From the NCBI GenBank assembly GCA_046731655.1, contig JBKPLM010000056.1, forward strand, positions 1 to 35,625: 35,625 bases of DNA, written 5' to 3'. The stretch is from Verrucomicrobiota bacterium (GTDB lineage Bacteria; Verrucomicrobiota; Verrucomicrobiia; Chthoniobacterales; UBA10450). Shown in pieces: positions 1,540 to 31,192 of this stretch. Position 1 is the first letter of the stretch. The number at the start of each line of letters is the position of its first letter. The notes under the pieces were generated by a model. It saw only the letters and a list, made by a program, of their open reading frames with translations. It was not told the origin of the DNA and made no database searches. Made by a program: the position numbers and the translations under genes.

Positions 1540-3753
1540 TTACTCGCTCGCGTCGCGCAGCGGAAGGTTACGCCGGTAACGATCGATATTAGATTCGAGT
1601 AGGTTTGCGATCGCAGCGTTTCCCTGTTTTGTGGCTAGCGCTGAGCCACGCTGCGCTGTCTCAATCGCCTTACCGAATTGCCCATTCTCGGCATACGCTG
1701 CAGCCAGCAACCGATAAATTTTGGGATCTTGGTCCCCTGAAAGTTCCAGTGCCCGCTCGCCTAGAGCAACCGCTTTTGCCCCGCTGCGAATGGCGTCGTC
1801 GGGAAACGTGGCGAACACCCACACGAGGTTGCAGTAAGCGCTCAGATTGTGTGGCTGTAGCTCCAGAGTCTTTTGCCATTGGCCGATTGCTTCGTCGATG
1901 CGCCCCTTTTGCGACAACGCAATGCCAAGGTCGTTGTGGGCTTCTGCACTCGCCGAATTGATTTGTAATTCCTTTTCTAAATGGGCAATTGCTTGATCGA
2001 ATTCGCCTTGTCGCAGGAAAACTGTTGCCAGGTTGTAATGAGCTTTGGGACGCCGCGGATCCAGTTGGATGGCTTTTTGGAAGCAAGTGACTGCGTCATC
2101 AAATGCTCCTTTCCGTTCAAAGACGGTGCCTAGGTTATTCTCGGCTTCTACGAACTCCGGCTGAACCTGTAATTCCTTCCGGAACTCTGCGATCGCCTCA
2201 TCGAGCTGGCCACTGTCCGAAAGTAATGTTGCGAGGTTGTAGTGCACCCGTGGACGGACTGGGCTTGTCTCGATAACCTTCCGGAATTCAATGAGCGCCT
2301 CGGTTTTTTGGCCTGTGCCCAAAAGCGCAAGTCCGAGATTGTTATGGGCATCCGCACTGTGGGGCCGGACTTCCAGGGCCTTGCGAGCGTGAAAGACTGC
2401 TTCCTCAAAACGATTTTGCCTCAGGGCGAGATTGCAAAGGCCGTTATGCGCTGTGTCGTTCTGTGGATTGACGTCGAGGGCGTGTGTCCAGAGCGTACGG
2501 CTATCATGCCAGTAGCTTGTTTGTTTCCAGGCAGACCACATCAAGATCACGATTGATGAGACCATTGCCGTGCCGAGGAGAACGCGTTGATTGCGCCCCG
2601 AGGATACAATGTCGGCAACGAACCAAGTCCCGAGAACATACAGACCGATCTGCGGTAAGTAAGTGTAGCGATCTGCATGAGCCTGCGTGCCGACCTGAAC
2701 GATCCCACTCACGGGCACCAGCATTCCCAAAAACCAAAACCAGCCGGTTAGAAAATAAGGATGTTTCCGTCTGTAGACGAAGGAGGCAATGGTGATTGCG
2801 AGGAGCAATAGCGCTGCCATCGAGACTTGAACGAGAGAAAGGCTGTGCCTTGGATGAGGGTAAAAGACGGACAACCCAAATGGCCAGACTAGTTGTCGCA
2901 GGTAAACGAGAATTGCCACGGCAGCATTACCAAGCCGCTCTGCTAATGACAGCTTGTCGATAGGATCGATAAAGTGACGCTGCGCGAGAACAGTTGCCAA
3001 GCATGAAGCAAACGAAAGAAACAGCAGCGGAATTTTTTCGAGGAAGATTCGTCGGAAATCCACGCGGCCTCCAGTTCTGCGCCGATGGCCCGATTTGCCT
3101 GGAGTCTCTGACGCAAATCGCTTTAAGGGCCAGTAGTCCAGTAATAGCAATACGAACGGAACCGTCACCAAAATCGGTTTTGACATGAGGCCGAACGTTA
3201 AAAAGAGGAGAACAAAGAGGTAGGATGTAAGCGACAGCGTCCGGATGTATCGAGTGTAGGCGCCGAGGGTCAGCATGAAAAATACGGCGCTCAGTACGTC
3301 CTTCCGTTCGGAGATCCAAGCTACCGATTCAACGTGCAATGGATGAATTGCGAACAGCACGGCAACAAAAGCGCTTCGCCACAAAGTCCCTGTCATTTGT
3401 CGCAGCACGAGAAACAGCAGGATGACAGCGATGGTGTGCAAAAGAACGTTGGTGAAGTGATGCCCTGCCGGCTTCAGTCCGTACACCTGGCAATCCAGCA
3501 TGTGCGAAATGACTGTCAGAGGATGCCAGTTGGCACAAACAGTGTGTGTGAATGCCCAACCTATGTTTTGCAGCGAAAGGCCCGCCCCTACTTTCGCATT
3601 ATCGTAAACATAGAGTTCGTCGTCGTAGTTGACGAAATCGTGCGCAAGCGTCTGACCGAAAATCAACCACGTCATCGCGGCAAGGACAGCACATATCCCG
3701 AAGACTACTCCGCGTTTTGGAGCCATTGTCCGGATAGAGGCGTGTTTTGCCAT
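1540..3753 (-). CDS. TMTC-like GT-C membrane glycosyltransferase homolog with C-terminal TPR domain (paralog A1)
   Basis: The ORF is open up to a GTG at 3786. I prefer the ATG at 3753 (MAKHASIRT...) by alignment of N-termini with paralogs A2 and A3. It has a polytopic N-terminal domain of about 430 aa. The first-loop acidic motif is FVNYDDELYVYDN, followed by NWHPLT..SHMLDCQVYGL and HPLHVESVAWISERKDVLSAVFF (DUF1736/TMTC-type). About 7 TPR units follow, then the shared C-terminal cap ...LLAAAYAENGQFGKAIETAQ.... Confidence 0.8.
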   Translation of the reverse strand: MAKHASIRTMAPKRGVVFGICAVLAAMTWLIFGQTLAHDFVNYDDELYVYDNAKVGAGLSLQNIGWAFTHTVCANWHPLTVISHMLDCQVYGLKPAGHHFTNVLLHTIAVILLFLVLRQMTGTLWRSAFVAVLFAIHPLHVESVAWISERKDVLSAVFFMLTLGAYTRYIRTLSLTSYLFVLLFLTFGLMSKPILVTVPFVLLLLDYWPLKRFASETPGKSGHRRRTGGRVDFRRIFLEKIPLLFLSFASCLATVLAQRHFIDPIDKLSLAERLGNAAVAILVYLRQLVWPFGLSVFYPHPRHSLSLVQVSMAALLLLAITIASFVYRRKHPYFLTGWFWFLGMLVPVSGIVQVGTQAHADRYTYLPQIGLYVLGTWFVADIVSSGRNQRVLLGTAMVSSIVILMWSAWKQTSYWHDSRTLWTHALDVNPQNDTAHNGLCNLALRQNRFEEAVFHARKALEVRPHSADAHNNLGLALLGTGQKTEALIEFRKVIETSPVRPRVHYNLATLLSDSGQLDEAIAEFRKELQVQPEFVEAENNLGTVFERKGAFDDAVTCFQKAIQLDPRRPKAHYNLATVFLRQGEFDQAIAHLEKELQINSASAEAHNDLGIALSQKGRIDEAIGQWQKTLELQPHNLSAYCNLVWVFATFPDDAIRSGAKAVALGERALELSGDQDPKIYRLLAAAYAENGQFGKAIETAQRGSALATKQGNAAIANLLESNIDRYRRNLPLRDASE

Positions 3754-3780
3754 TCCTAAAGACTGGATCGAGGAGAGTAA

Positions 3781-3853
3781 AACCACGAATGGACACGAAT
3801 AAACACGAATTTTTCTTCTCTCTATTCGTGTGCATTAGTGTTCATTAGTGGTT
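3781..3853. repeat. Inverted pair of 3x10-bp tandem arrays (CACGAAT decamers) filling the divergent A1/B1 intergenic region
   Basis: Left arm: aaccacgaat/ggacacgaat/aaacacgaat (3781-3810). Spacer: ttttcttctctct (3811-3823). Right arm: attcgtgtgc/attagtgttc/attagtggtt (3824-3853). The arms are reverse complements at 25/30 positions. Confidence 0.85.
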
Positions 3854-6214
3854 AGATCTTTCCGGCAGCGAGACTGGCTTTGGGGCTTTGTTTTGATTGG
3901 TCTCGTTTGCGTGGCATACGCTCGAGTTTTTAATGCGGACTTCATTTGGGATGACGAATCACATCTGACTCGCAATCCCTGCGTCGTTGGTCCTCTGGGA
4001 TTGAAAGAAATTTGGACTAGCGCGCGAGCCGTCTATTACCCGTTAGTGCTGACGACTTTTTGGATCGTACACAAGTTCGTCGGCCTGGCGCCCTGGCCAT
4101 ACCATCTTTTGAATGTGCTTTTGCACGCTGGATCGGCTGTCTTGCTCTGGCAGATCTTGCGACAACTAAATGTCCGCGGCGCGTGGCTCGGAGCGGCGCT
4201 ATGGGCTTTGCATCCGGTGATGGTCCAATCAGTCGCCTGGGTAACTGAGCTGAAAAATACGCAATCGGGCTTCTTTTATCTCGTGTCGATCTTCTGCTTT
4301 TTGAAACGGGATAAGGAAACCGCGGATTGCGCGGATGACACGGATAGTTCGGAACAAAGCTCGCCAGACGAACTGACGAAATCGCCGATTCGCCGATTCG
4401 CCGATTCGCCGATTCTGTGGTTGGGCCTTTCTTTACTCTTTTTCATCCTTGCGACCCTTAGCAAGCCTTCCGTGGTCATGTTGCCTATGGTCCTTGCCCT
4501 GTGTATCTGGTGGAGAACGGGTCGGATCCGTTGGCGTGATGTTGCAGTGCTTGCGCCGTTTGTCATAATTTCCGCACTCGCGAGCGTCTGGACGATTTTG
4601 GAACAGAAGTTTCACGCTGGCGCGCTTGGCGCTGAGTGGGCGCAGACCTGGCCGGAACGGGTTATCATCGCGGGGCGCGCGATATGGTTTTATTTGGCGA
4701 AGCTGATATGGCCGCATCCGCTAATCTTCATCTATCCGCGGTGGGAGATCGATTCTTCTCAACTAATCCCCTATTTGCCGCTCCTCGCGGCATTAGCTGG
4801 ATTACTTGTCCTGTGGTTGAACCACGCGAAATGGAGTCGTGCCGTATTGTTTGCCGCCGCATACCATGTGGTTTCCCTGTTCCCTGTGCTTGGATTTTTC
4901 AGCGTCTATTTCTTTCGCTACTCATTTGTGAGCGATCATTTTCAATATCTGGCGAGCATGGGGCCGCTGGCATTAGCCGGCGCGGGCATCGTAACTGCTG
5001 TAGGGCGTTTGACTCGTTCGCTCCCGCTCGCTCGCCTTGGCGAGCCGCCCGTCCATGTCGCTCGCGTCCCCGCGGCTCAATTCGGTGAACTCCGAAAGTT
5101 TTCGCGGCCTGACACAGGCGCCCCACAATTTTCCGGTAACATCGCCGCGGTTAGACGGAAATCGTTTCTGCTTCCGACAACATCGGGGATGCTCCTCCTG
5201 TCGCTTGTTGTTCTGACATGGCGACAAACTGCCGTTTATCACAATCTAGTGACCCTGTACACAGCGACACTGACAAGGAATCCCGGTTGCTGGATGGCGC
5301 ATTACAACTTGGGCATCGCTCTAAATGAACAGGGCGACACTGATGGAGCGATCGCCCACTATCGCCAGGCTCTTGACCTGCGGCCGAGTTATTGGGAGGC
5401 GCATTATAATCTAGGCCGGCTTCTCGTACAGAGGGGCCAGGTCGACGAAGCTGTTACTCATTACCAGGAAGCACTGGAAATAAATCCCGCCGATGCAGAA
5501 GCACACAACAATCTTGGGGCCACGCTTTTTGTGAGCGGGAGTGTAGATGAGGCCATTGCTCATTATCGGAGGGCGCTCGCAATCCAACCCGATTACGCCG
5601 ATGCCTCGTGCAATCTGGCAAGTGCGCTTCTTTTCAAAGGTGATTTAGATGGCGCCATCGCTTATTACTCAGGTTGCCTCGCGGTATCACCAAATCAGGT
5701 TGAGGCTCAGTACAACTTTGCGACCGTCTTGCTTCGAACTGGTCGGACGGACGAGGCGATGGCTCATTATCAAAAAGTCCTCGAGTTGAGCCCGGACAAT
5801 GCGGATGCTCGAGCAAATCTGGGAAGCGTGTTTCTCGCAAAAGGCCGCGTCCGAGATGCAATTGCTCAGTACAGAGATGCGCTTCGGATTGCGCCTGATA
5901 ATGTGACTGCCCAGAGTAATCTTGCATGGCTGCTCGCGACCGCTGGCGATCCGTCGCTCAGAAATGGATCAGAGGCTGTCCTCTTGGCCGAACGGGCAGA
6001 ATCCGAGAGCTCTCGGAGCGAAAATCGCGCAATTGTTCTACGCACCCTGGCTGCAGCATACGCTGAGACTGGCCGCTTTGTTGATGCCAAGAAAACTGCC
6101 GAACAAGCATTGCAAGCCGCAGAGATCCAGGGAAACTCCACTTTGTCCAGCGCTCTCCGGGCAGAAATCTCGCTTTACGACCTTGGTTTACCGTATCATA
6201 AGGAGGCGAGATGA
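3848..6214 (+). CDS. TMTC-like GT-C membrane glycosyltransferase homolog with C-terminal TPR domain (paralog B1)
   Basis: GTG start at 3848; the N-terminus aligns with paralog B2. The first-loop motif is FIWDDESHLTRN, followed by YYPLVLTTFW and HPVMVQSVAWVTELKNTQSGFFY. About 10 TPR units follow (AHYNLG.../AHNNLG...), then the shared C-terminal cap NLAWLLATAGDPSLRNG...LRTLAAAYAETGRF.... It carries two insertions relative to B2 (about 4319-4415 and about 5003-5188). Confidence 0.8.
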   Translation: MVRSFRQRDWLWGFVLIGLVCVAYARVFNADFIWDDESHLTRNPCVVGPLGLKEIWTSARAVYYPLVLTTFWIVHKFVGLAPWPYHLLNVLLHAGSAVLLWQILRQLNVRGAWLGAALWALHPVMVQSVAWVTELKNTQSGFFYLVSIFCFLKRDKETADCADDTDSSEQSSPDELTKSPIRRFADSPILWLGLSLLFFILATLSKPSVVMLPMVLALCIWWRTGRIRWRDVAVLAPFVIISALASVWTILEQKFHAGALGAEWAQTWPERVIIAGRAIWFYLAKLIWPHPLIFIYPRWEIDSSQLIPYLPLLAALAGLLVLWLNHAKWSRAVLFAAAYHVVSLFPVLGFFSVYFFRYSFVSDHFQYLASMGPLALAGAGIVTAVGRLTRSLPLARLGEPPVHVARVPAAQFGELRKFSRPDTGAPQFSGNIAAVRRKSFLLPTTSGMLLLSLVVLTWRQTAVYHNLVTLYTATLTRNPGCWMAHYNLGIALNEQGDTDGAIAHYRQALDLRPSYWEAHYNLGRLLVQRGQVDEAVTHYQEALEINPADAEAHNNLGATLFVSGSVDEAIAHYRRALAIQPDYADASCNLASALLFKGDLDGAIAYYSGCLAVSPNQVEAQYNFATVLLRTGRTDEAMAHYQKVLELSPDNADARANLGSVFLAKGRVRDAIAQYRDALRIAPDNVTAQSNLAWLLATAGDPSLRNGSEAVLLAERAESESSRSENRAIVLRTLAAAYAETGRFVDAKKTAEQALQAAEIQGNSTLSSALRAEISLYDLGLPYHKEAR
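4319..4415 (+). repeat. Intragenic structured repeat: 3x9-bp (..CGGAT) units, a 6-bp-stem palindrome, and 4 tandem copies of the octamer TCGCCGAT
   Basis: The cggat-ending 9-mers end at 4327, 4336 and 4345. agttcg (4346-4351) pairs with cgaact (4369-4374). tcgccgat x4 occupies 4382-4413, followed by a partial tc. The region encodes ADCADDTDS...SPIRRFADSPI, a loop that is absent from paralog B2. Confidence 0.85.
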
Positions 6215-6260
6215 CCTCACGTTCCCGAATTCTTTATCGCGACCCGTACAACGCTGTGAG

Positions 6261-8360
6261 TTAATCGCCGGGAGATGTTCGTCGAAGCGGAACCTGCTGG
6301 CGATAGAGCAAACCGTCTTGTTCGAGAAGATCCGCCAGACCGGTTTTGCCCTGCACGCTGGCAATGGCTACGCCTTGTTGTATCACCGCACTGGCGTTAG
6401 AGAAACGGCCGGTTTCTGCATAAGCGGCCGCGAGCGTCCGAAAAAAGAGGGGTTCTCTGCCGCCTGAGAGGGATACCGCTTGCTGCGCTAGTTCGACCGC
6501 CTTTGCGCCGTCCCGGATCGAGGCGTCAATTGACGTTGCCAGGACCCAGGCAAGATTGCTACGAGAGTGCGGATCTTCGGGCGCTAACGCCATTGCTTTG
6601 TTGTAGTGGGCGATTGCCTCCTTCAGAGCACCTTTGCGCAGAAAGGCGTTACCAAGCCCGGTATAAGCATTCGCGTCGTTGGGCTGTATTTGAAGATCCT
6701 TCTCCCAGTCAGTGATTGCTTCGTCGATCCTGCCCTTTGCATAAAGAGCGTTTCCGCGATTGTAATAGGCTTCTGCGTAATCGGGTTGCAGGTTTATCGC
6801 CTGTTCGAAGTGGGCCATCGCTTCATCGAGTTGCCCTTTTCTCGCCAGAGCGTCTCCGATATTCATTTCTACAAAAGCGGTACCCATTTTATAATGAGGA
6901 TGTAACTTGCCAGACCTGATTTTCGACGCGGCCTCAAAATGCGACATCGCTTTGTCCAGTTCACCGCGGTCGACGCAGAGGTAGCCGAGATTATTGTGGG
7001 CGAAATCGTTGTCGGTGGTGACGGCGAGAGCACGCGTCCAAAGCGTCTCGCTGTTTCGCCAGTACGACGTTTGAGTGAAGGCCGTGCATGCCAGGGCAGC
7101 GACGATCACTACGGTGCCCGCGATAGCTACACCACGCCATAATCTGACCTGGCCCACTGCTGCTACGTCGCCAGTAATCCAAGCTGCAATCAGGAACAAA
7201 CCGATAGAAGGAAGGTAGCTATAACGGTCGGCATGGCCTTGTTCACCAACCTGAACAAGCCCAATCACGGGAACCAGCATAACAAGGTACCAGAACCAAC
7301 CGGTAAACAGATAAGGTCGCTTATCTCGCCAAACTACTGCCGCACAAGTGATGGCGAGGAGGAATGCAATCGCGAGAATAACCTGCCAAGTTCCCAAAGT
7401 ATCATTTGGATGAGGATAAAAAACAGCGAGACGCGTTGGCCACAACATTTTCCAGGCGTAAATGACGTAACTCATGACTGCATTCTCCGCCCGCCAGAGA
7501 AACGGCAGCGGAGGGAGCGCGCCAACGGCGCGTTTTTGAAGCACAAATGTAACGATCCCGGCGGCGGTGGAAAGAATGAACAAGGGAATCTTTTCCAGAA
7601 AAAGCCGCCGTATGATGCGCCTTTGGCTGTCTGACTGCAGGACTTTCGTCTTCCCTTTTGGGGAGGCGATTTTCTCAAAACGACGGAGCGGCCAGTAATC
7701 CAAAACGAGAAGGATAACCGGGGCGGTTACCAGCATGGGCTTGGACATAAGTCCTGCCACGAACAGGGCAGTCACCACGACATAGCGCGTTATTGATGGC
7801 GCCCGTGCATATCGAACGTATGCGTCCAACATGAGGAAAAAGAAAACTGCGCTCAGAACGTCTTTTCGCTCGCTCACCCATGCGACCGACTCGACGTGCA
7901 GCGGGTGAACGGCAAATAGTGCAGCGACAATGGCACTCTTCCAAAGCGCGCCGGTCATTTGCTGCAGCACACGAAACAGCAGAAGTGCTGCAATGGTGTG
8001 CAACACGACGTTCGTAGCATGGTGACCGCCAGCGTTTAAACCGTATAGCCCACAGTCCAACATATGTGACAGGGTTGTTAACGGATGCCAGTTGCCAGCA
8101 TGCGGGCTCGTAAAGGCGGCTGCTATCCCTTTTAGCGTCGGCCCGGTCCGAATGGCCGGGGCGTTGTAGACGTACATATCGTCGTCGAAATTGACGAAGT
8201 TGTAATGAATTGTCTGACCGAAGACGGCCAGACTAAGCGCGGTAAGGAGCAGGCATATGCCGCCAGTTGTGACACGTCTGTGAACGTCCCGTGGTACTTC
8301 ACGTGGTCCGTGATTCCGTTGTCGCTTCCTTTTATTCGCTGTTGGGTGACGAGCTGGCAT
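6261..8360 (-). CDS. TMTC-like GT-C membrane glycosyltransferase homolog with C-terminal TPR domain (paralog A2)
   Basis: ATG at 8360, overlapping the stop of A3 by 29 nt. Motifs: FVNFDDDMYVYN, NWHPLTTLSHMLDCGLYGL, HPLHVESVAWVSERKDVLSAVFF. TPR units follow, then the cap NLAWVLATSIDASIRDG...FRTLAAAYAETGRF.... Confidence 0.8.
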   Translation of the reverse strand: MPARHPTANKRKRQRNHGPREVPRDVHRRVTTGGICLLLTALSLAVFGQTIHYNFVNFDDDMYVYNAPAIRTGPTLKGIAAAFTSPHAGNWHPLTTLSHMLDCGLYGLNAGGHHATNVVLHTIAALLLFRVLQQMTGALWKSAIVAALFAVHPLHVESVAWVSERKDVLSAVFFFLMLDAYVRYARAPSITRYVVVTALFVAGLMSKPMLVTAPVILLVLDYWPLRRFEKIASPKGKTKVLQSDSQRRIIRRLFLEKIPLFILSTAAGIVTFVLQKRAVGALPPLPFLWRAENAVMSYVIYAWKMLWPTRLAVFYPHPNDTLGTWQVILAIAFLLAITCAAVVWRDKRPYLFTGWFWYLVMLVPVIGLVQVGEQGHADRYSYLPSIGLFLIAAWITGDVAAVGQVRLWRGVAIAGTVVIVAALACTAFTQTSYWRNSETLWTRALAVTTDNDFAHNNLGYLCVDRGELDKAMSHFEAASKIRSGKLHPHYKMGTAFVEMNIGDALARKGQLDEAMAHFEQAINLQPDYAEAYYNRGNALYAKGRIDEAITDWEKDLQIQPNDANAYTGLGNAFLRKGALKEAIAHYNKAMALAPEDPHSRSNLAWVLATSIDASIRDGAKAVELAQQAVSLSGGREPLFFRTLAAAYAETGRFSNASAVIQQGVAIASVQGKTGLADLLEQDGLLYRQQVPLRRTSPGD

Positions 8361-10251
8361 TTGTTAGGCTATGGTCGCGGAGCGGCTGCTGTTCCTGGTA
8401 AAGCGAGATGTTGGCCTGGAGTTCGGTAGCGAGACCAGAGTTCCCCTGGCTATTGGCTAACTCGATGCCGTGCTGCGCAGTCTGGATCGCGTCCATGAAT
8501 CGGCCATTCTCTGCGTATGCCGCCGCTAACGTGCGGAAGAGAATTGGGATTCTGCCTCCCGAGATGCGTACGGCTTGTTCTGCCAGCTGGACCGCTTTGG
8601 CGCCATTTCGAATCGACTGGTCCGGTGACGTGGCAAATACCCAGGCGAGATTGCTCATCGCGTTTCCATTATCAGGTTCAACCGACAACACCTTCTGCCA
8701 CTCTTCGACGCCTTCCTGCACATGGCCTTGCTGTACAAGAACGGTGCCCACGATATTGTGGACCTCCATGTTATCGGGTTGTAGCTCCAGTAATTTACGG
8801 TAGTGAACTAGCGCGTCGGCCACTTGACCTTTTTGGAGAAGAGCCTTGGCAAGGTTCTCGTGAGCAGGGCTGTTGTCAGGTCGAAGATCCACGGCTGCCT
8901 GTAGGAGCGAGATAGCCTCGTCCACCTTGCCTTGGCCCAAAAATACGATGCCGAGATTATTTTCAGCAACGTCGTTGTTTGTGGTTACTGCAAGCGCGTG
9001 CTTAAACAATGTTTCGCTGTTACGCCAATAGGACGTCTGAACCCATGCGCACAAGCTCAAAGCGCCGATGACAAGTACTGCAGCAGTGCTCACAATTGAG
9101 CGTTGATGCCGGTATAAAGCGGTCAAATCGGCCACTCCCCAGGTGGCTGCTATGTATAGGCCAATCTGTGGTAAGTACGTATATCGGTCAGCGCGGCCCT
9201 GCCAGCCGACTTGCACGAGTCCGATAACTGGGACAAGCATTCCGAGATACCATAACCAGCCCGTTATGAAGTAGGGCCGCTGTTTCCGCAAAGCGATGGC
9301 CAGTGCCGTGATACATATTAGAAGGAGGAGACATGAGACGATTTCCAAAACGGGTAGCCGGTTCTCAGGATGTGGGTAGAACACGGCGAGGTTCACCGGC
9401 CAGAGCATCTGCCAGATGTAGAGGACATAGCTGACTACCGCGTTATTGATTCTTTCCAATATCGGCAAGTCCTCCGTCCAACCGACCGCGCTTTTCTGAA
9501 TGAGAAAAGTGACGACGCTTGAAGCGGCGGAGAGAGCTATCAGTGGAATCTTTTCCAGGACCGGGATTAATAACTGGCGCCTGCCGTCTAATGCCTGACA
9601 TCCGATTCTACAAAGCGGCCAATAATCAAGAACCAATAACACCAATGGCAGCGTGACCAGCATCGGTTTAGACATGAGGCCACAGGCGAAGGCGAATACC
9701 ACGGCCAGATAACGTCCGAACCGAGGTAAGCGCACGTAATACACGTAGGCGAGGAGTGTCAGCGTGAAGAAAACGCCGCTTAGCACATCCTTTCGTTCTG
9801 CTATCCAGGCGACCGATTCGACACGTAATGGATGAATTGCGAACACTGCTGCAACGAAAGCGCTTCGCCAGAGCGCTCCGGTCATCTGTTGGAGCGCAAG
9901 AAAAAGGAGGATCGCCGCCAGGGTGTGGAGAAGGACGTTCGTAAAATGATGCCATCCTGCGTTCAACCCATATAGCTGGCAGTCGAGCATATGTGACATA
10001 GTCGTCAGCGGATGCCAGTTCATGGAATGAATATGACTGAATGCCCAGGCAAAACCGCTAATGCTGAGCCCGCGGGTTATTCTCGTATTTTCATAAACGT
10101 AACGTGGATCGTCGTAGTTGATGAAGTCGTGCCATAGCGTGCGGCCGAAAACAAGCCAAGTCAGGCCCGCCAGAGCGATGCAGATGCCGATGGTCCGCCA
10201 AAAACGGTCGGTTTGTGGCGGAGCTAATTCAGCGTTGCTGATACGGTGCAT
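8332..10251 (-). CDS. TMTC-like GT-C membrane glycosyltransferase homolog with C-terminal TPR domain (paralog A3)
   Basis: ATG at 10251. Motifs: FINYDDPRYVYEN, NWHPLTTMSHMLDCQLYGL, HPLRVESVAWIAERKDVLSGVFF. The TPR array is shorter (about 4-5 units). The cap reads NLAWVFATSPDQSIRNG...FRTLAAAYAENGRF.... Confidence 0.8.
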   Translation of the reverse strand: MHRISNAELAPPQTDRFWRTIGICIALAGLTWLVFGRTLWHDFINYDDPRYVYENTRITRGLSISGFAWAFSHIHSMNWHPLTTMSHMLDCQLYGLNAGWHHFTNVLLHTLAAILLFLALQQMTGALWRSAFVAAVFAIHPLRVESVAWIAERKDVLSGVFFTLTLLAYVYYVRLPRFGRYLAVVFAFACGLMSKPMLVTLPLVLLVLDYWPLCRIGCQALDGRRQLLIPVLEKIPLIALSAASSVVTFLIQKSAVGWTEDLPILERINNAVVSYVLYIWQMLWPVNLAVFYPHPENRLPVLEIVSCLLLLICITALAIALRKQRPYFITGWLWYLGMLVPVIGLVQVGWQGRADRYTYLPQIGLYIAATWGVADLTALYRHQRSIVSTAAVLVIGALSLCAWVQTSYWRNSETLFKHALAVTTNNDVAENNLGIVFLGQGKVDEAISLLQAAVDLRPDNSPAHENLAKALLQKGQVADALVHYRKLLELQPDNMEVHNIVGTVLVQQGHVQEGVEEWQKVLSVEPDNGNAMSNLAWVFATSPDQSIRNGAKAVQLAEQAVRISGGRIPILFRTLAAAYAENGRFMDAIQTAQHGIELANSQGNSGLATELQANISLYQEQQPLRDHSLTNASSSPNSE

Positions 10252-10266
10252 GCCGTGATCTTACCT

Positions 10267-10401
10267 AAATGACGAAATCCGAATAAATGCTCGAAGCATT
10301 TCACGTGATTCGTGAGTAGTTACAACGTTAAAACGGGTCCGGTTCAACGATTTAAGAATTCAACTTGGCGAAAGCCATTCGTCATTCGAGTTTCGTCATT
10401 T
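10267..10401. repeat. Imperfect inverted repeat built from ACGAA/TTCGT short units, between the ArnT/PMT-like gene stop and the A3 start
   Basis: aaatgacgaaa (10267-10277) is the exact reverse complement of tttcgtcattt (10391-10401, abutting the TAG stop at 10402). The right arm reads as heptamers: cattcgt/cattcga/gtttcgt/cattt. The left arm continues as tccgaataaatgctcgaag. The spacer contains attcgtg (10308-10314), the same heptamer as in the 3781-3853 element. Confidence 0.7.
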
Positions 10402-12015
10402 CTAGGACTTCCTCCGGTAGATCAAAATGTATTTTCCCAGCTGTGGCACTGATTGGGGTACGTCCCCAAAATAATAATCTGTTTTGTCTGGTGCCACCAC
10501 GTTCACGAAACCCGCTACAGTATAGTTTTGCGCCGTGTATTCATTAGCCCAGTTGAAAATCAGCCGCTCGGATTCCGGCCGTTGCAGCCATGAATCCGGC
10601 ATCACCACAGAGATGAGAAATTTGGGATGGGCACGTTCAATGTCGCGGATCATTTCCTGCTGCATTTGGCTGGCATACTTCTGGGGTTCCATCAGGCCGT
10701 AAGTATAAATGTAGCCGGTTGCGGAATGTCGGTCGGAATAAAAATAAATCTGCGGCTCGGAACCAAGCACGGCGATCGTGTCATTTCGGGTGGTATGTTC
10801 TCGCAGATATTCTGCAATTCTGAGGGATTCCGGGAAGGGTCCCTCTGGATAAATCATTCGAGAGGCATCGACTAGGGAGGCTTCAAAAAAGAACTTTCTC
10901 TCTGCGACAATCGGCCCAGCAAGAGAAAGCCCCAGAATCAACATGGGGATGAATCGCACTACGATTAATCGATCTGCACTGAGATCTGACAATTTGCTAA
11001 TGGCAACGCCTGCAAGCAGCGAGACAGCTGGAAGCACCAAGATGAAATAGTGCAATCGAAAATAGAATCCCGGGCATAGCGACAGGGCAGAGAACAAAAG
11101 GAAGCCGAGCAGAAAAATTGCGATAGGACGTGTTCGCTGCTCCCACAAACCCGCAACGAGTCCGATTCCAGCCAGCGTCCAGATCGGCCAGCCGGCTACA
11201 ATCACTTCCTTTGCGCTGTAGAAGAAAATCCGCGGCGCTTGGCTGAAAGGAACCAGGCTGCCGTACTGACGCGCGTAATCGATTGTCCAAAACCAGAACC
11301 TGTCGAAGACACCAATGCGCCAGAGAAACAGACAAGTAATTCCCAAGGGAAGAATTACGCCGGTACTAAAAATCAAGCTTCGCAGGAAAATTTTTTCAGG
11401 TCGAGATCGGCGATGAAAACCGTTGGAGACAAGATAAACCGCTCCAAACAGAGCGAAGAAAACCGCCGGCTGCTTCATTAACAGTCCGATGCCGAAGAGG
11501 ATCCCGCTCGCGAACAATCGTCCCAGGGACTGCCGACCTGCCGAGTTGACCAAGAGCAGTGTTCCACCGAGCACCGGGAGCAGCACAAAATGTGTGGCGT
11601 GGCCGGCAAACCCCAACACCGAGGGGCTTACAGAGAGCACAGCGTAACTCATTCCTGCGGCAAGTCCCACTACCGAATTCAGAAGATGGCGGCCCAGTAA
11701 AAAGATCAAAATGATCGTAGCCGCGTTAACAAGAAGCAGTCCTAAATGAATTCCGGTTATTGTTTGCCCAAAGATCGACATGATTGCGGCGTAGGCTGCA
11801 TAAGTTCCTGGGAACTTCATGTTGTAGGCGAGCGTGTATGGTGGAACACCTTGCAAAATGAGTTGACCGGCATAAGCGTATTCGCCTTCATCGCGCTCGA
11901 GTGGAACTCCAAGGAGTCGAACTCTGATGGCAATAACGAGGCCAAAAACACCAGCCGCGACAAGCCACCATGCAATCGGCAGCGCTCTTTCTTGATCGCG
12001 ACTTTTAGTCGGCAT
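10402..12015 (-). CDS. GT-C fold membrane glycosyltransferase, ArnT/PMT-like (GT39/GT83-type) with a C-terminal soluble domain
   Basis: The ORF is open to 12162. However, the ATG at 12015 (MPTKSRDQERALPIAWWLVAAGVF...) sits just before TM1 and avoids overlapping the divergent gene. The first-loop motif is PLERDEGEYAYAGQLILQGVPPY. About 11-13 predicted TM segments are followed by a hydrophilic C-terminal domain of about 170 aa. Confidence 0.65.
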   Translation of the reverse strand: MPTKSRDQERALPIAWWLVAAGVFGLVIAIRVRLLGVPLERDEGEYAYAGQLILQGVPPYTLAYNMKFPGTYAAYAAIMSIFGQTITGIHLGLLLVNAATIILIFLLGRHLLNSVVGLAAGMSYAVLSVSPSVLGFAGHATHFVLLPVLGGTLLLVNSAGRQSLGRLFASGILFGIGLLMKQPAVFFALFGAVYLVSNGFHRRSRPEKIFLRSLIFSTGVILPLGITCLFLWRIGVFDRFWFWTIDYARQYGSLVPFSQAPRIFFYSAKEVIVAGWPIWTLAGIGLVAGLWEQRTRPIAIFLLGFLLFSALSLCPGFYFRLHYFILVLPAVSLLAGVAISKLSDLSADRLIVVRFIPMLILGLSLAGPIVAERKFFFEASLVDASRMIYPEGPFPESLRIAEYLREHTTRNDTIAVLGSEPQIYFYSDRHSATGYIYTYGLMEPQKYASQMQQEMIRDIERAHPKFLISVVMPDSWLQRPESERLIFNWANEYTAQNYTVAGFVNVVAPDKTDYYFGDVPQSVPQLGKYILIYRRKS

Positions 12016-12031
12016 TAGAAGTGCTAAATCG

Positions 12032-13555
12032 ATGAAGAGGCGACCGGACGCAAGATGCGAACAAGCAGGCCTTCGAGTATCGGCGAAGGGGTTTATTTGG
12101 CTCTTATGCTTGCTCGCTGGAATGCGAACCTTCCTCTTCTGCGCGGGCTTCCCCTTTTTCAATAATGCCGATGAACAAGCGCACTTTGATGTTGTGCTTA
12201 AGTACTCACAAGGGCATCTGCCTCGCGGAATGGAACACTTTTCCGGCGAAGCCGCCCGTTATTTCGTGCAGTACGGTTCACCGGAGTTCTTCATGTCGCC
12301 GGCGGCATTTCCAGACGGGCGCTTCCCTCCTCCGACTTGGACGTCCTCGGCGGAGGGAACTTCGGCCGCAGTTTTGGCGACCGAACAAGCATGGAGCGAT
12401 GCGACTAATCCTGAATCGTGGCAGCCGCCTTTGTATTATGCAGTCGCCGGCTTGTGGCTGAAATTGGGGAGGTTGGGCGGGCTCTCCGACGGTCACCTGC
12501 TTTATTGGGTACGGTTTCTAAACGTTCTCTTCTTCTCAGCGCTCGTTTGGTTGAGTTTTCTGGCAGCGCGGGAGTTCTTTTCTCAACGAGAATGGGTAGC
12601 CATGTGCGTTCCAGTTTTGGTGGCGTTTATCCCCCAGGACATGTTTTACGGGTTAGAGAACGATAATCTATCGCCACTCCTGTTCGGTGCGGTTTTCATT
12701 TGCTTGATCCACTGGTGGCGAGCAGAAATACTGAGTCCTCTGCTCGCGGTTCGTCTCGGATTGACAATGTCGGCGACATACCTCACGAAACTCAGTAACG
12801 CTCCGTTGCTTGGGGTTGCTCTTTGTGTTGCTCTGCTAAAGGTCTTTTCGACGGTCCGTTCAGGAAATCTCGGCCGGATGCTGACTGCGCTGGGGATTTT
12901 CGTCGCATGCGCCATCATTCCGGTCGGCGCCTGGATGATTTGGATGCAGCACGCTTTCGGAGATGCGATCGGTTCTTCGACACACATCGCGCTTTCAGGC
13001 TGGACGCAAAAGCCGTTCGAAGCGTGGTGGCATCATCCTATTTTCACATGGCAAGGCGCCTGGAGCTTTCTGTCCAAGCTGCTGGCAAGTTTCTGGCGCG
13101 GCGAGTTCATTTGGCAGGGAAGCAGATTGGCTTCGGCTGCCGCAGATTACTTTTATGTTATTTCGTCGCTGCTATTGGTCTGGATCACAGCGCTGCATCT
13201 GCCCCTGCTTGCTCGCCGCGATAAAGTGAAGGCACAAATTGTTTCTTTCGCCTTACTAAGTTTTATCGCCGCGGTGCTGTTTCTCGCGTTTATCTCAATA
13301 CGATTCGATTTTGGCGATTCCGTCTATCCTTCGCGTACCGAGCCCTATTTGTGGTCGGGACGTTACATCACCGGTGCGCTGATTCCGTTCATGATCGTCT
13401 ATGTTTACGGACTCGACCTCGCTCTTCGTTGGACACATAGAACGTGGCCGCTGTTAGCTACCGTAGTCATAATTGTCACCGCCGTTACGGTTTCGGAAAT
13501 CCGAGTCAATCGAGCGGTATTCTCCAGCGACTATAATTGGTTTCACCTCCCTTAG
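12032..13555 (+). CDS. Polytopic membrane protein, GT-C-like (DUF2142-like) putative glycosyltransferase
   Basis: ATG at 12032. A positively charged N-terminus precedes TM1 (FIWLLCLLAGMRTFLFCAGF), followed by the loop motif PFFNNADEQAHFDVV. The first loop is long and many TM segments follow. The family assignment is from motif memory only. Confidence 0.5.
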   Translation: MKRRPDARCEQAGLRVSAKGFIWLLCLLAGMRTFLFCAGFPFFNNADEQAHFDVVLKYSQGHLPRGMEHFSGEAARYFVQYGSPEFFMSPAAFPDGRFPPPTWTSSAEGTSAAVLATEQAWSDATNPESWQPPLYYAVAGLWLKLGRLGGLSDGHLLYWVRFLNVLFFSALVWLSFLAAREFFSQREWVAMCVPVLVAFIPQDMFYGLENDNLSPLLFGAVFICLIHWWRAEILSPLLAVRLGLTMSATYLTKLSNAPLLGVALCVALLKVFSTVRSGNLGRMLTALGIFVACAIIPVGAWMIWMQHAFGDAIGSSTHIALSGWTQKPFEAWWHHPIFTWQGAWSFLSKLLASFWRGEFIWQGSRLASAAADYFYVISSLLLVWITALHLPLLARRDKVKAQIVSFALLSFIAAVLFLAFISIRFDFGDSVYPSRTEPYLWSGRYITGALIPFMIVYVYGLDLALRWTHRTWPLLATVVIIVTAVTVSEIRVNRAVFSSDYNWFHLP

Positions 13556-13611
13556 AGGAGCGAATCAGGGATTCTTTCACTGGAATGGAAGCAGCGGCTG
13601 GTCGCTAAGAG

Positions 13612-15681
13612 ATGTCGCAACCAATCACAGAGCAGCCTCGCCGTTCATGGCAAAAAGGACTGCTTTTCGCATTGATCCTGGCGGCTGTGACGATCTTTGC
13701 ATACCGGCCTGCGTGGAACGGGGGTTTTCTCTGGGACGACGACTTCTACATCACCAATAATGAGCTGCTGACGGCGCCTGATGGTCTGCGGCGAATCTGG
13801 TTCTCGCTCGATTCGCCTTCGCAGTATTTCCCGCTGGTTTATACAACTTTTCGCATCGAGCGCGCCATTTGGGGCCTCAATCCAACTGGTTATCATTGGG
13901 TGAATCTTCTGCTGCACGTTGCCAACGCGCTGCTGGTGTGGTTGGTGCTGGCGCGGTTAAAGGTTCCGGGAGCATGGCTGGCTGGAGCAATTTTTGCGCT
14001 GCATCCCATCCAAGTGGAGTCGGTCGCTTGGATCACGGAACGCAAAAATGTGCTGATGGGCTTTTTCTTCTTGCTCACGCTACTTGCCTGGATTGCGTTT
14101 GTGAACGCAAGAACGAAGCGGCCCTCGCTGTTTTATGGACTTGCTCTGATCCTTTATCTACTGGCGCTTTCGGCCAAGACAACAGCCTGCACCCTACCCG
14201 CGGCGTTGTTCCTAATTTTGTGGTTGCAGAGGATACGCATCAGTTGGAAGCGAATTTTCCAGATCATTCCCTTCCTTGTTCTTGGCATAGCCATGGGCGT
14301 ATTAGCGATGTGGTGGGAGCGGTACCATCAGGGAACGAGCCGGTCTGTATTTACGTTCCTGACCCCAATCGAACGGGTCCTCGTCGCGAGCCGTGCTGTT
14401 TGGTTTTATCTGAGCAAACTCATCTGGCCATCTAATCTGACATTTATTTATCCGCGATGGGATATCGCGCCGACTCATCTGCTCAACTTTGCGTGGCTGT
14501 TAGCGGGAGTCATCGCATGCGGAGCTCTCTATTTTCTCCGTCGATATTTAGGACGCAGCGTCGAGGTCGCAGTGGGATTTTTCGTTGCGACCCTGAGCCC
14601 GGTGTTGGGATTCATCATGCTTTACACCTTTCGGTACACGTTTGTAGCCGATCATTACCAGTATCTGGCTTGTATCGGTCCGATCGCCCTGGCTTCTGCC
14701 GGCCTGGTCAATTTGACCGACATGTTTAAGAACGGCCGCGCCTTAATTTTAAGCGCGGCGCTCTGTGTCGTGGCTCTCCTGGCGGCACTGACGTGGCGAC
14801 AAGCCGCGATGTATGGCAATATCGAAACGCTCTGGCGCACGACTCTGGTCAAAAACCCCGGTTGCTGGATGGCTCACAACAATTTGGGCATCGTGCTGTT
14901 TGAAAATGGCCAACTTGACGATGCGATTGCGCATTATCGGACGACCTTGCAGATGCAGCCGAATTATTGGGATGCCGATTACAATCTTGGCACCGCTCTT
15001 CTGGGTAAAGGCCAGGTGGACGAGGCAATTTTTCATTGCGACAAAGCAGTCAGGATGCAGCCAAACGATCCAGATGCTCGAGTGGCCTTGGCCAATGCTC
15101 TTCTTCAAAAGAGACGTATCGACGATGCGATCTTTCACTACCAAAGAGCAGTTGCAATTCGTCCCAATTATTTTCTTGCCCGTCGCGGGCTTGGGCACGC
15201 TCTGCTTGAGAAAGGGAAGCTTGATGCTGCGATCGAGCATTCTCGGGCTGCCTTGTTGATCCAGCCTAATGACGCAGACTGTCACACAGTCCTGGCCATA
15301 GCTCTTGATGAAAAAGGCCAATCGGCCGAAGCCATCGCACACTATGAAAAGGCGTTGGAGATTTCTCCTCAATCCGTTTCTGCTTTGAATAATCTGGCGT
15401 GGTTACTAGCCACAGGTTCCGACGCGTCATTGCGAAATGGGCCCCGTGCGATTCAATCTGCGCAGAAAGCTGACCAACTTTCCGGAGGCACCAATGCGGT
15501 TGTGCTCCGCACGTTGGCAGCAGCATATGCGGAGGCTGGTCAATTTGGAAAAGCCATCGAAAGCGCCCAGGCTGCGACGCAGCTGAGACGGAGCCAGGGT
15601 GACGATTCGTTAGCTACCGAGCTTCAGCAAGAAATCGCGCTTTATGAGTTAGGGTTGCCTTATCGTGAAACGCCAAAATGA
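13612..15681 (+). CDS. TMTC-like GT-C membrane glycosyltransferase homolog with C-terminal TPR domain (paralog B2)
   Basis: ATG at 13612. Motifs: FLWDDDFYITNN, YFPLVYTTFR, HPIQVESVAWITERKNVLMGFFF. About 6-7 TPR units follow, then the cap NLAWLLATGSDASLRNG...LRTLAAAYAEAGQF...LYELGLPYRE. Confidence 0.8.
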   Translation: MSQPITEQPRRSWQKGLLFALILAAVTIFAYRPAWNGGFLWDDDFYITNNELLTAPDGLRRIWFSLDSPSQYFPLVYTTFRIERAIWGLNPTGYHWVNLLLHVANALLVWLVLARLKVPGAWLAGAIFALHPIQVESVAWITERKNVLMGFFFLLTLLAWIAFVNARTKRPSLFYGLALILYLLALSAKTTACTLPAALFLILWLQRIRISWKRIFQIIPFLVLGIAMGVLAMWWERYHQGTSRSVFTFLTPIERVLVASRAVWFYLSKLIWPSNLTFIYPRWDIAPTHLLNFAWLLAGVIACGALYFLRRYLGRSVEVAVGFFVATLSPVLGFIMLYTFRYTFVADHYQYLACIGPIALASAGLVNLTDMFKNGRALILSAALCVVALLAALTWRQAAMYGNIETLWRTTLVKNPGCWMAHNNLGIVLFENGQLDDAIAHYRTTLQMQPNYWDADYNLGTALLGKGQVDEAIFHCDKAVRMQPNDPDARVALANALLQKRRIDDAIFHYQRAVAIRPNYFLARRGLGHALLEKGKLDAAIEHSRAALLIQPNDADCHTVLAIALDEKGQSAEAIAHYEKALEISPQSVSALNNLAWLLATGSDASLRNGPRAIQSAQKADQLSGGTNAVVLRTLAAAYAEAGQFGKAIESAQAATQLRRSQGDDSLATELQQEIALYELGLPYRETPK

Positions 15682-21568: not shown

Positions 21569-24500
21569 ATGAGAGTGTGGGGGATGGCGGCAGTCGCCGC
21601 GCTGGTGCTTAGGTTATTCGCCGCAGATTCGTTTGGAGCGGAAAATGTCGCCCCGACGAAAGCGGAACTGGAAGAAATGTACAACGCTGCGTACCGCGCG
21701 TTCGATTCTGGCAAATTCGCGGAAGCGCTAAAACAGCTTGATGCCATCGATATCCGCCAACCTGATCTTGCAGCGTCAAAGAACTTGCGCGGCGTGATCC
21801 TGATGCGCCAGGGCAACTACGATCAGGCGGAGGCAGCACTGCAGGACGCTGCCCGAATCGATCCCAAGTTTTGGAACGCGCGCTTCAACCTGGCGGAAAT
21901 TCCGTTTCTTAAGAAAGATTGGCCGGAAGCGCGGAATCGTTTCGAGCAACTTCTTTCCAACGGTGAATCCGATCTGGCGAAAGAAGCTTCGCAGCTGATC
22001 CAGTACAAAATTCTGCTCACGTACCTGCTGGAGGGGAAAGTCAACATGGTCGATTCTATTCAGGCCAAGTTGGAGCTTTCGCCCGATACGCCCGCCGTTG
22101 ATTACGTGAAGGCGGCCGTTGCGCTGCAACAAAAGAATCAAAAGGAAGCGAAAGATTGGATCAGTACCGCAGAGAAGAATTTTCCTCCGCAACTGAATAA
22201 GCTTTTCGTCGAATCACTTTACGAAGTCGGATGGCTTGAAAAGCCAGCCGGCCAAGCGCGGCCTTCGTTGCCGCTAATGACTGCCGCTGAGCGCTCGGAG
22301 AAGACGAAGGCGATTGCCCGCGCAAAATTTGAGCAGGCGCAGCAGGCGCTCCGGCAGCGCGATTTCACAGCAGCTCTTAAACTGGCCGATGAAGCGGATC
22401 AGGCAGATCCGAATCAGGCGGCGACAATTAATTTACGCGGCGAAATTCTGATGCAGCAGGAGCAGTTCGACCAGGCCGAAGCGGCATTTAAGAAGGCAGC
22501 CAAGCTGGATCCGAAACTTCGCGAAGCACAATACAATCTGGCACAAATTCCCTTTAAGAAGAAGGAATATGCAAAAGCGCGGGACCGCTTCGAGACCTTG
22601 TACAAGCGGACGCCCGGGGGTGATAAAAATCAGGCGGCCGAACTCATCAAATTCAAGATCTACATGACGCTTTTGCTCGAAGGAAAAGAGAGCCGCGCAC
22701 ACGCGATGATGGATGAGTTTCAATTTACCGGGGACACGCCCGCACTTTATTACGCCCAAGCGGCTTGGGAGTTTCAACATAACAATGCAGAGAAGGCCAC
22801 GGATTGGACTGCTTCGGCGAATAAGATTTATTCGTCGGCACTGAACAGCGTTTTTGCTGACGCTTTCTACGATGTTGGTTGGATGCAAAAGCCGGCGGCC
22901 GCGACCATGCCGACACCCGCCTTTGACACAGCCCAGGCTGAGGGCAGTCCGGCGGTCGAGCCGAGTCCTATTCCAGACAAGGTTTTTGCTGCTAATAGCC
23001 AAAGTGACACCTCGAAAAATGAAGGGCTGGCTTTGGGCTCAACAGTGAGTGCACCCGGTGCTGGACTGGATATCGCCGGCACTGGAAAGGCTGCGCAGAC
23101 TTCCATCTCTGCATCGAATGAGTCGGCATCGGGTACGGGCGCGCAGTCTGAGCAGCCGGCGTCGGCATTGCCCTCCAGTGGCAGCGAATCCACGACTGCA
23201 GCGGCGCCCGCTGAGTCACCGCAGACATCATCGCCCGCTCCCAAGGAACAGGGTGAACAGCCGGCTCTCGCTCAAACGAGCGCGAGCGCTTCCGCGAGTC
23301 CCGCCGTAGGAGTGAAGGCTGCCGAAGCTGCGCCGTCCGGCGTTCTCGCGAGAGGCAGAATGTGGCTTGTCGGCGGACTACTTTTAGCGGCGATAGTGAT
23401 ACTCGCCTGGGTGATCGTGCCTTCCCTTCGCCGTCGTTATGCCTTCAACCTGCCAAGCTACTCGCGGACAACCTCTGCCGCCGCACCTGCCTTGTTTAAG
23501 CCGAGAGCGGAGCCGGCATTGCCGCAAAAGAAGGCTGTACACGGCAACGGCTTTGTCGGAGGACCCCGTCAGATTTCGCTGCAACTAAAGGCATCGAAAC
23601 CGTCGTTGCGAGATACTGCCGTTCCTACGGGCAACTTGAGTCACAGAGTTGATCTGACCAAAGGCCGAAGCGCGAAGCCGTCACGAGACTCGGCCTTTCA
23701 GATGGAAGAGCCAATTCGCGAGGTATCGCTTATTGGATCCGAGGCTGAGGCTGAATCAGTCGTGGGGCCGATTGTCGAACAACCGGCAGAGAATGGAGAG
23801 AGCTTGCATACGGACATTCCGCAGACGCCTGAGATCGCCGGGGTTCCAGCGGTCAACGAATTGACCGAGGTCGCTGCGATCGCTCCGCGAACGACGGCTG
23901 AGATTCCCGAAAGCGTTGAGAAAACCACGTGGCCCACATATGAGGCGAGCGATATTTTCGATGACGCGAAGGAAACTGCATCGTTTTCTGAGCAGCCTGT
24001 TGAGATCCCGCGAGATGAAGAAGTCGCATTGCCTGCCGTGACAACGTCGACAGAATTTCCCGGGGAATCGATCAGCCTGGAGCCACCAGTGCCGGATCAA
24101 ACAGTTTCGCCTGTGATTGCTACCCCGGTGCTCGCAAGCGCTGCTACCTTCCCTGATTCACCAGGGGCCACTTCCGCAGAACCTGTATTTCCGCAAACAA
24201 CAACACCCGCAATCATGCCTGAAACAACTCAAACCCCAACCGCTCCTGTAAATAAAGCCCCGGCCCCGCCGATGGCCAAACCGCAACAACCACCTGCCGC
24301 GATGCAAACATCCGTGCAGCTCACTTTCTCGTTCGAGATCGCAGCCATGCAGTTGACACCCAGTTTTAAAATGGGCGCCCTCAAGGTGCGACCCATATCA
24401 AAGCTGGTCACGATGCGGTTGCCCTCGCCTCAGCAGCCTCAGTCGGCTCTGAATTTGCAGGTGAGCTTTGAAGTGGCAAAGATTCAGCCCACCGCAGGAG

Positions 24501-30976: not shown

Positions 30977-31192
30977 GGCGCACGCCGAACGTACCGCGCT
31001 GGAGCCTAGCTGCAAAGCCAAAAGCACTCCACGCAATAAGGGCAGGCAGTAAGCACGACCCGGTTTTGAAGCGAAATCATTGCGCGTTCTGTCTTGATTA
31101 ACCAATCAATTGACGGTTTTCTTCATCTCAACGTGAGCCAGTCTGTTGATCAGATCTTTGTTGATGCCAAGCAGTGGCTGCTGTCTTGGGTG

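Follow-up and report, generated by a model that had tools for sequence, protein, structure and literature searches.

Several of the closest described systems combine a GT-C membrane domain with a tetratricopeptide repeat (TPR) region. The animal protein O-mannosyltransferases TMTC1–4 (CAZy family GT105) have 11 transmembrane (TM) helices, and residues of their membrane domain have been rationalised as catalytic or ligand-binding (PMC7801869). The O-mannosyltransferase TMEM260 (DUF2723) joins an 11-TM GT-C module to a luminal TPR region and is reported to have distant bacterial homologues (PMC10214176). The Pseudomonas aeruginosa pilin D-arabinofuranosyl transferase TfpW, which glycosylates pilin, has a DDx motif and 11 TM helices, and its TPR domain is periplasmic (bioRxiv 10.1101/2020.04.19.049825). 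Here we analyzed a 35,625-nucleotide stretch of DNA, henceforth the window, from a Verrucomicrobiota bacterium (GenBank assembly GCA_046731655.1, contig JBKPLM010000056.1, positions 1 to 35,625), in which seven genes for large membrane proteins, g1 to g7, form an array. Five of them (g1, g2, g3, g4 and g7) encode TPR-bearing homologues of TMTC1–4, and the array probably constitutes a set of extracytoplasmic glycosyltransferases.

A prediction made earlier from the sequence alone (the original prediction) described seven consecutive genes with nothing unrelated between them. The open reading frame (ORF) list and the translations agreed: seven large ORFs lie back to back and fill positions 1540–15681, and no additional gene fits inside the array because the intergenic gaps are 61, 46, −29, 150, 16 and 56 bp. 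The array comprises four transcription units on mixed strands (g1; g2; g5-g4-g3; g6-g7). Its genes are as follows (aa, amino acids).

g1: 1540–3786, minus strand; putative TMTC-like GT-C glycosyltransferase, 748 aa, called from the ORF with TPR recognised by Pfam; membrane domain about aa 1–420 (2527–3786), TPR tail 1543–2526; Asp-Asp pair (DD) in FVNYDDELY.
g2: 3848–6214, plus strand; putative TMTC-like GT-C glycosyltransferase of a second subgroup, 788 aa; membrane domain about aa 1–457 (3848–5218), TPR tail 5219–6211; FIWDDESH, together with HPVMVQSVAWVTELKN.
g3: 6261–8360, minus strand; putative TMTC-like GT-C glycosyltransferase, 699 aa; membrane domain about aa 1–428 (7077–8360); FVNFDDDMY.
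g4: 8332–10251, minus strand; putative TMTC-like GT-C glycosyltransferase, 639 aa; 11 TM helices in aa 13–408 (9028–10251), 12 TPR-type helices in 8335–9027; FINYDDPRY.
g5: 10402–12015, minus strand; PMT_2/ArnT-like putative GT-C membrane protein with no TPR, 537 aa from the ATG at 12015; PLERDEGEYAY.
g6: 12032–13555, plus strand; DUF2142 polytopic membrane protein, 507 aa; first-loop motif PFFNNADEQAHFD (FFNNADEQAHF).
g7: 13612–15681, plus strand; putative TMTC-like GT-C glycosyltransferase of the second subgroup, 689 aa; membrane domain about aa 1–395 (13612–14796), TPR tail 14797–15678; FLWDDDFY and ADHY.

The original prediction had called five of these proteins TMTC-like, and direct comparison with TMTC N-terminal sequences, taken from the supplementary alignment of PMC7801869, bore this out. 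BLASTP of g1, g2, g3, g4 and g7 against the human and fly TMTC N-domains gave 42–79 bits at 21–34% identity over up to 407 columns. g1 matched fly TMTC1 (79 bits) and g2 matched human TMTC2 (53.5 bits); g3 with human TMTC4 (407 columns, 61 bits) and g7 with fly TMTC4 (380 columns, 76 bits) aligned over nearly the whole domain. No match to TMTC was obtained with g5 or g6, and the five TPR proteins gave nothing significant against ArnT. When a 153-sequence profile of the bacterial family was aligned by hhalign with a six-sequence TMTC alignment, the probability was 99.85% (E = 6.7e-31, 374 columns); g1 itself scored 609 bits against the family hidden Markov model. These sequence comparisons show that the likeness of the five TPR proteins to animal TMTC1–4 reflects true homology and is not one of shared architecture only.

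All seven acidic first-loop motifs quoted in the original prediction were found in the translations, each directly after the first hydrophobic helix. A second motif, HPxxV(E/Q)SVAW(I/V)xE(R/L)K(D/N), which the original prediction had given with L, V or I at the third position as common to five of the proteins, was likewise found in g1, g2, g3, g4 and g7. When the five membrane domains were aligned, the mean column identity was 48% with 47 invariant columns; between paralogues, identity was 30–55% in the membrane domains and 37–49% in the TPR tails. These five genes are old paralogues of one very large bacterial family. In g2, two insertions are present that the other paralogues do not have: an acidic stretch rich in Asp and Ser that follows the ERK(D/N) motif (4300–4420, aa ~153–190) and an insert of about 50 residues that separates the last two TM helices (5006–5160, aa ~387–438).

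In the 153-sequence alignment, the DD (99%), H102, HP..VES, E152, K154, K195, R267 and D355 were 98–100% conserved. Counterparts of the TMTC residues rationalised as catalytic or ligand-binding were present in the bacterial family, and these equivalent positions were 84–100% conserved. The DD in TMTC extracytoplasmic loop 1 (EL1) corresponds to D47/D48, SHKSYRPL to NWHPL, HxVNxxLH to H102/N105/H109, and the Lys of KE to K195; HPIHTEAV..GRADVL (FAVHPIHTEAVAGIVGRADVL) corresponds to HPLRVESV..ERKDVL (FAIHPLRVESVAWIAERKDVL), and AERV.Y.PS.G (VAERVLYxPSxG) to ADRY.YLP.IG (RADRYTYLPQIG). The five TPR proteins resemble TMTC1–4 across the whole homologous membrane domain, with 11 TM helices, a DD in the first extracytoplasmic loop, the HP.H.E.V, GR/ER-x-D-V-L and AERV/ADRY motifs, the catalytic-site Lys and a C-terminal TPR region on the non-cytoplasmic side. 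Unlike TMTC1–4, they are bacterial and hence would act in the periplasm rather than in the lumen of the endoplasmic reticulum (ER); the carrier would be a bacterial polyprenyl phosphate in place of dolichol, and clients of the cadherin type are not expected.

Searched alone, the five membrane domains gave no match in Pfam, even at E ≤ 10, or in NCBIfam (E ≤ 1), so the family assignment was taken from structure and from the direct TMTC comparison. PDB sequence searches with the membrane-domain profile, g5 and g6 also gave no match, and a PDB search with a profile of full-length homologues returned TPR proteins only. AlphaFold modelled full-length g4 (predicted local distance difference test score, pLDDT, 83.5) as 11 long helices followed by 12 TPR-type helices. 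Foldseek with this model returned TPR proteins only (OGT, Tom70 and APC among them), and because they swamped the search a membrane-only model of residues 1–408 was needed (pLDDT 79.6; predicted template modelling score, pTM, 0.84). Against the PDB, the best 23 matches of this membrane domain were all GT-C enzymes (human and yeast STT3, Pmt4, AglB, DPY19, PglB, Pmt1/Pmt2, PIG-M and PIG-U), with probabilities of 0.77–1.0 and query TM-scores of 0.35–0.54. The Emb and AftD arabinosyltransferases ranked next, and non-GT-C matches (transporters and G-protein-coupled receptors) had probabilities ≤0.14. With g4 modelled as representative, these results indicate that the five TPR proteins have the GT-C fold, as had been predicted. 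Three of ten family representatives, moreover, passed the threshold of Pfam PMT_2.

The acidic loop had been expected to be conserved and not cytoplasmic. On the helices of the g4 model, Lys and Arg make up 10 of 52 residues (19%) in the predicted cytoplasmic loops versus 9 of 134 (7%) in the predicted periplasmic loops. This positive-inside bias predicts that the N-terminus is inside and that both the conserved DD loop and the TPR tail lie outside the cytoplasm; D47/D48 of g4 are placed in the first periplasmic loop, and the tail is predicted to be periplasmic because an odd number of TM helices follows a cytoplasmic N-terminus.

In the TPR tails, Pfam recognised 2–7 canonical units per protein (E = 1e-29 to 1e-54 for g1, g2, g3 and g7; 5e-19 for g4). 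The 12 helices after TM11 in the g4 model form six hairpins, and the longer tails (235–331 aa) have room for about 6–10 units, which makes the predicted 4–10 units roughly right. The last ~105 residues of g1, g2, g3, g4 and g7 (e.g., 8335–8650 in g4) form one conserved module, NLAW..AT..D.S.R.G..A...A..A...SG......RTLAAAYAE.G.F..A...A......QG...L...L.....LY....P.R. Its identity (38–57%) shows that it is conserved like the catalytic domain, which suggests a shared partner or a structural cap, not client-specific binding.

The two remaining genes encode proteins of other families. The longest ORF of g5 spans 10402–12162 (586 aa); we set its start at the ATG at 12015 (537 aa), and orthologues in three loci were called at 536–537 aa. 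The apparent overlap of g5 with g6 arose because the longest ORF had been taken for g5; the genes are divergent and the true gap is 16 bp. As the original prediction of a GT-C-like protein would have it, g5 matched Pfam PMT_2 (PF13231) well above threshold (52.9 bits versus a cut-off of 26.1, E = 6e-14), and its orthologues gave the same match. RDEGEYAY after TM1 is close to ArnT PDEGRYAE (an ArnT-type DEGxYA motif), and the protein ends in a soluble domain of ~170 aa. A small profile of g5 orthologues aligned by hhalign with the TMTC-like family over TM1–TM6 at 88% probability (E = 3e-6); this value was obtained with deeper alignments, and a shallow five-sequence profile versus g5 was insignificant. 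Comparison of g5 with an ArnT sequence fragment was not significant (hhalign probability 13%). Unlike ArnT, g5 has no arn pathway genes near it, and it matched no PDB chain by sequence.

g6 has 10–11 predicted TM helices and matched Pfam DUF2142 (PF09913) with 51.0 bits (cut-off 30.1) over profile positions 11–368 of 395; its first-loop residues D47, E48, H51 and D53 are 98% conserved in 117 homologues. The putative GT-C status of g6 derives from a single source, the assignment to DUF2142, which we take to be a member of the Pfam GT-C clan. DUF2142 proteins in Gram-positive cell-wall polysaccharide loci are proposed polymerases or transferases (PMC9746298, PMC12599335). g6 resembles these WpsI/WpsJ-like proteins in passing DUF2142 and in its conserved first-loop D-E..H.D; unlike them, it lies between GT-C genes and not beside GT2 and flippase genes (PMC9746298, PMC12599335).

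Taken together, the analyses directly support the gene structure, the modelled fold, the homology to TMTC, the conservation of catalytic-site residues, the predicted topology and the conservation of the array described below. From these we infer the catalytic activity, the donor and the acceptor. We consider it probable that this Candidatus Udaeobacter-like bacterium carries, in a conserved array, a set of GT-C glycosyltransferases that are extracytoplasmic, and that the acceptor of the five TPR enzymes is a protein. An 11-helix catalytic membrane domain, with its Asp-Asp in the first periplasmic loop and its C-terminal TPR projecting into the periplasm, would, on the model of TMTC, PMT, ArnT and PglB, draw a single sugar or a glycan from a polyprenyl-phosphate carrier on the outer side of the inner membrane and transfer it to an acceptor positioned close to the active site. 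Most likely the TPR domain would recruit this acceptor, and most likely the acceptor would be an envelope or secreted protein. g5 and g6 would be two further GT-C-type enzymes without TPR, and they may act on lipid or glycan acceptors. A protein acceptor is favored because TMTC1–4 and TMEM260 (PMC10214176) as well as TfpW (bioRxiv 10.1101/2020.04.19.049825) all glycosylate proteins and because TPR is a protein-binding module.

The parallel with TfpW bears on the earlier statement that no bacterial TMTC-like protein has an assigned substrate. TfpW, compared here by description only, has the same architecture and acts on pilin; this architectural likeness qualifies the statement. Unlike the array genes, tfpW directly follows pilA, the gene of its substrate, and some species have it beside genes for the D-arabinofuranose donor; among the window genes, we noticed no pilin gene or TfpW-type linkage beside the array. 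TMEM260 differs in that the sequence homology of the window proteins runs to TMTC, and none of the seven proteins matched Pfam DUF2723.

Several observations weigh against the proposed interpretation. The membrane domain had been called DUF1736-type, and this part of the original prediction was not supported: Pfam DUF1736 (PF08409) matched neither the five membrane domains (E ≤ 10) nor ten family representatives (E ≤ 1). The TM7–TM8 loop aligns with that of TMTC and reads ...WP..L..FYP, so that, unlike in TMTC1–4, DNPA is gone and the DW position is YP, which accounts for the missing DUF1736 match. The Arg of ADRY, 98% conserved in the 153 family sequences, is His in the second subgroup, where the motif reads SDHF in g2 (5000–5012, aa 385–389) and ADHY in g7 (14659–14670, aa 350–353); in other GT-C enzymes (STT3, PglB and TMTC models), this Arg binds the donor phosphate. 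The g6 family gave no hhalign signal against any of the other profiles, and thus no profile link to the other six proteins. A Pfam scan of the window ORFs found no polyprenyl-phosphate glycosyltransferase or flippase, the absence that the original prediction had already remarked. Among 138 ORFs lying no more than 2.5 kb from family members, at loci from many phyla, a Pfam scan found no neighbor family in more than four (GT2 in four, methyltransferases in four); since no neighbor family recurs, the context is uninformative on the donor. In the literature, we found no characterised bacterial TMTC-like enzyme and no Udaeobacter glycosylation, the TfpW analog aside. Finally, a TPR domain fused to envelope glycan machinery can also serve as a scaffold.

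This last point leads to the alternative that survives best, namely that the same GT-C enzymes act on glycan or lipid acceptors (lipid A or lipopolysaccharide core, exopolysaccharide or peptidoglycan-linked polymers) while the TPR domain is a scaffold docking to export machinery. TPR scaffolds are standard in exopolysaccharide export, as in BcsC, PgaA, AlgK and PelB, and the shared C-terminal TPR module fits a common partner better than distinct clients. The PMT_2/ArnT-like character of g5, with its ArnT-type DEGxYA motif, points in the same direction, as does a gene of the UDP-glucose/GDP-mannose dehydrogenase family, a UDP-glucose 6-dehydrogenase, at 27342–28655 on the minus strand (Pfam E = 5e-66). 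The ArnT donor pathway starts from UDP-glucuronate. The dehydrogenase gene is the sole nucleotide-sugar gene in the window, at a distance of 12 kb from the array, and we saw no other arn-type gene. The occurrence of DUF2142 proteins in cell-wall polysaccharide loci (PMC9746298, PMC12599335) is also consistent with such acceptors. However, TMTC1–4, the closest characterised sequence relatives, act on proteins, as does TfpW with its equal architecture, and no polysaccharide synthesis or export genes flank the array or occur among the 138 neighbor ORFs of other phyla. We hold glycan or lipid acceptors to be less likely than a protein acceptor, but a serious rival to it.

A bolder form of the protein-acceptor interpretation is that the five paralogues are a protein O-glycosylation system with division of labor, each TPR recruiting a different class of envelope protein, as TMTC1–4 do for cadherins, and that the family is the prokaryotic source of eukaryotic TMTC. 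That each TPR might select a different client is suggested by this analogy. The TPR tails (37–49% identity) are not more diverged than the membrane domains (30–55%), which counts against the original prediction of TPR-selected substrates; because the tails are no more diverged than the catalytic domains, specialization by TPR is not indicated. We regard the bolder form as unlikely. Its candidate client, a speculative one, is encoded at 21569–24883 on the plus strand. This 1104-aa protein, a putative periplasmic stalk protein, has an N-terminal signal-like sequence, TPR repeats, a Ser/Thr/Ala/Pro-rich stretch (34% Ser plus Thr at aa 501–550), a hydrophobic helix near aa 600 and then a tail, rich in Pro and Thr, that holds five loose repeats of an 'FEIAxxQLxP'-like unit. 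A Ser/Thr-rich stalk near the membrane is the kind of segment that O-mannosyltransferases modify. In the related locus L001, a 1105-aa TPR protein lies at the equivalent end of the array beside a pantothenate kinase gene.

The five TPR proteins could instead be non-catalytic, membrane-anchored TPR adaptors or chaperones that retain a GT-C-derived fold. The first descriptions of TMTC proteins presented them as ER adaptors in calcium homeostasis, the glycosyltransferase role being proposed later, and to our knowledge there is no enzymology for bacterial members of the TMTC-like family. The 98–100% conservation of the equivalents of GT-C catalytic and donor-binding residues across the 153 sequences argues against this, and we consider it very unlikely. 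An assembly artefact of collapsed or chimeric paralogues, suggested by five related genes inside 14 kb of metagenome-type sequence, is rejected, because the paralogues (30–55% identical) are too diverged for mis-assembly and the gene order recurs on independent Candidatus Udaeobacter contigs.

The seven-gene array is real, conserved and somewhat fluid. Orthologues of g4, g7 and g6 (78–94% identity; 83–91% for g7) are abundant in soil metagenomes and in metagenome-assembled genomes named Candidatus Udaeobacter, a member of the Verrucomicrobiota, order Chthoniobacterales. All seven genes, with their order kept, were found in NCBI assemblies GCA_009772835.1 and GCA_009772125.1, and independent contigs in NCBI, ENA, JGI and Logan samples repeat the gene order with 62–94% protein identity. 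Variation affects g1 and g6. g1 is absent from the related locus L085; g6 is present in L083, L084 and L085 (only 49% identical in the last) and absent from L001 and L005, where g7 and g5 are spaced by 65–150 bp. The idea that g6 is a strain-specific insertion was rejected, since several lineages have an orthologue of it (46–94% identical) adjoining a g7-like gene. In L001 there are also an additional paralogue of 743 aa and a TPR-only gene (227 aa) next to the TonB receptor. g3 begins 29 nt before the end of g4, its neighbor on the same strand (8332–8360), and this overlap, kept in L001 and L085, suggests translational coupling in a g5-g4-g3 operon.

Around the array, the flanking genes of the window are unrelated housekeeping genes, including those for a TonB-dependent receptor, alkaline phosphatase, phosphoglycerate mutase, ALAD and pantothenate kinase. 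An ORF of 787 aa at 28742–31105 on the minus strand has a hydrophobic N-terminus and matched nothing in Pfam at E ≤ 1e-3; in composition it resembles a large outer-membrane beta-barrel, possibly LptD-like.

The family extends far beyond this locus. At E ≤ 1e-3, a membrane-domain profile search returned 116,708 clusters (50% identity), of which 35,284 reached E ≤ 1e-30. Scanning one genome per species, we found relatives in Verrucomicrobiota, Planctomycetota, Acidobacteriota, Desulfobacterota, Nitrospinota, Myxococcota, Hydrogenedentota and other phyla. At least two family members lay within ~10 kb of each other in 30 of 83 loci (window included), and arrays of four or five were found in Planctomycetota, Sedimentisphaerales, Phycisphaerales, Smithellaceae and other Verrucomicrobia. 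Since members of this family often stand in tandem, the array is less unusual than the original prediction implied. JGI names many orthologues 'protein O-mannosyl-transferase', an automatic label and not an assay result, and CAZy GT105 has been reported in bacterial genome annotations. The novelty of the window proteins is accordingly limited: they add another member to an already labelled, very large and functionally uncharacterised bacterial family.

Bacterial TMTC-type enzymes are among the largest membrane-protein families without an experimentally assigned function, and they abound in soil and sediment phyla that are dominant but mostly uncultured. The window itself eases the question of their function little: the organism is uncultured, the context is uninformative, and similar arrays exist in more tractable phyla. 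Candidatus Udaeobacter ranks with the most abundant bacteria of soil, and its genome is reduced. That five to seven array genes are kept in one conserved locus despite this reduced genome suggests that envelope glycosylation matters to Udaeobacter. Identification of the donor and acceptor would give access to a bacterial glycosylation pathway that may be widespread and would bear on the origin of the animal TMTC enzymes.

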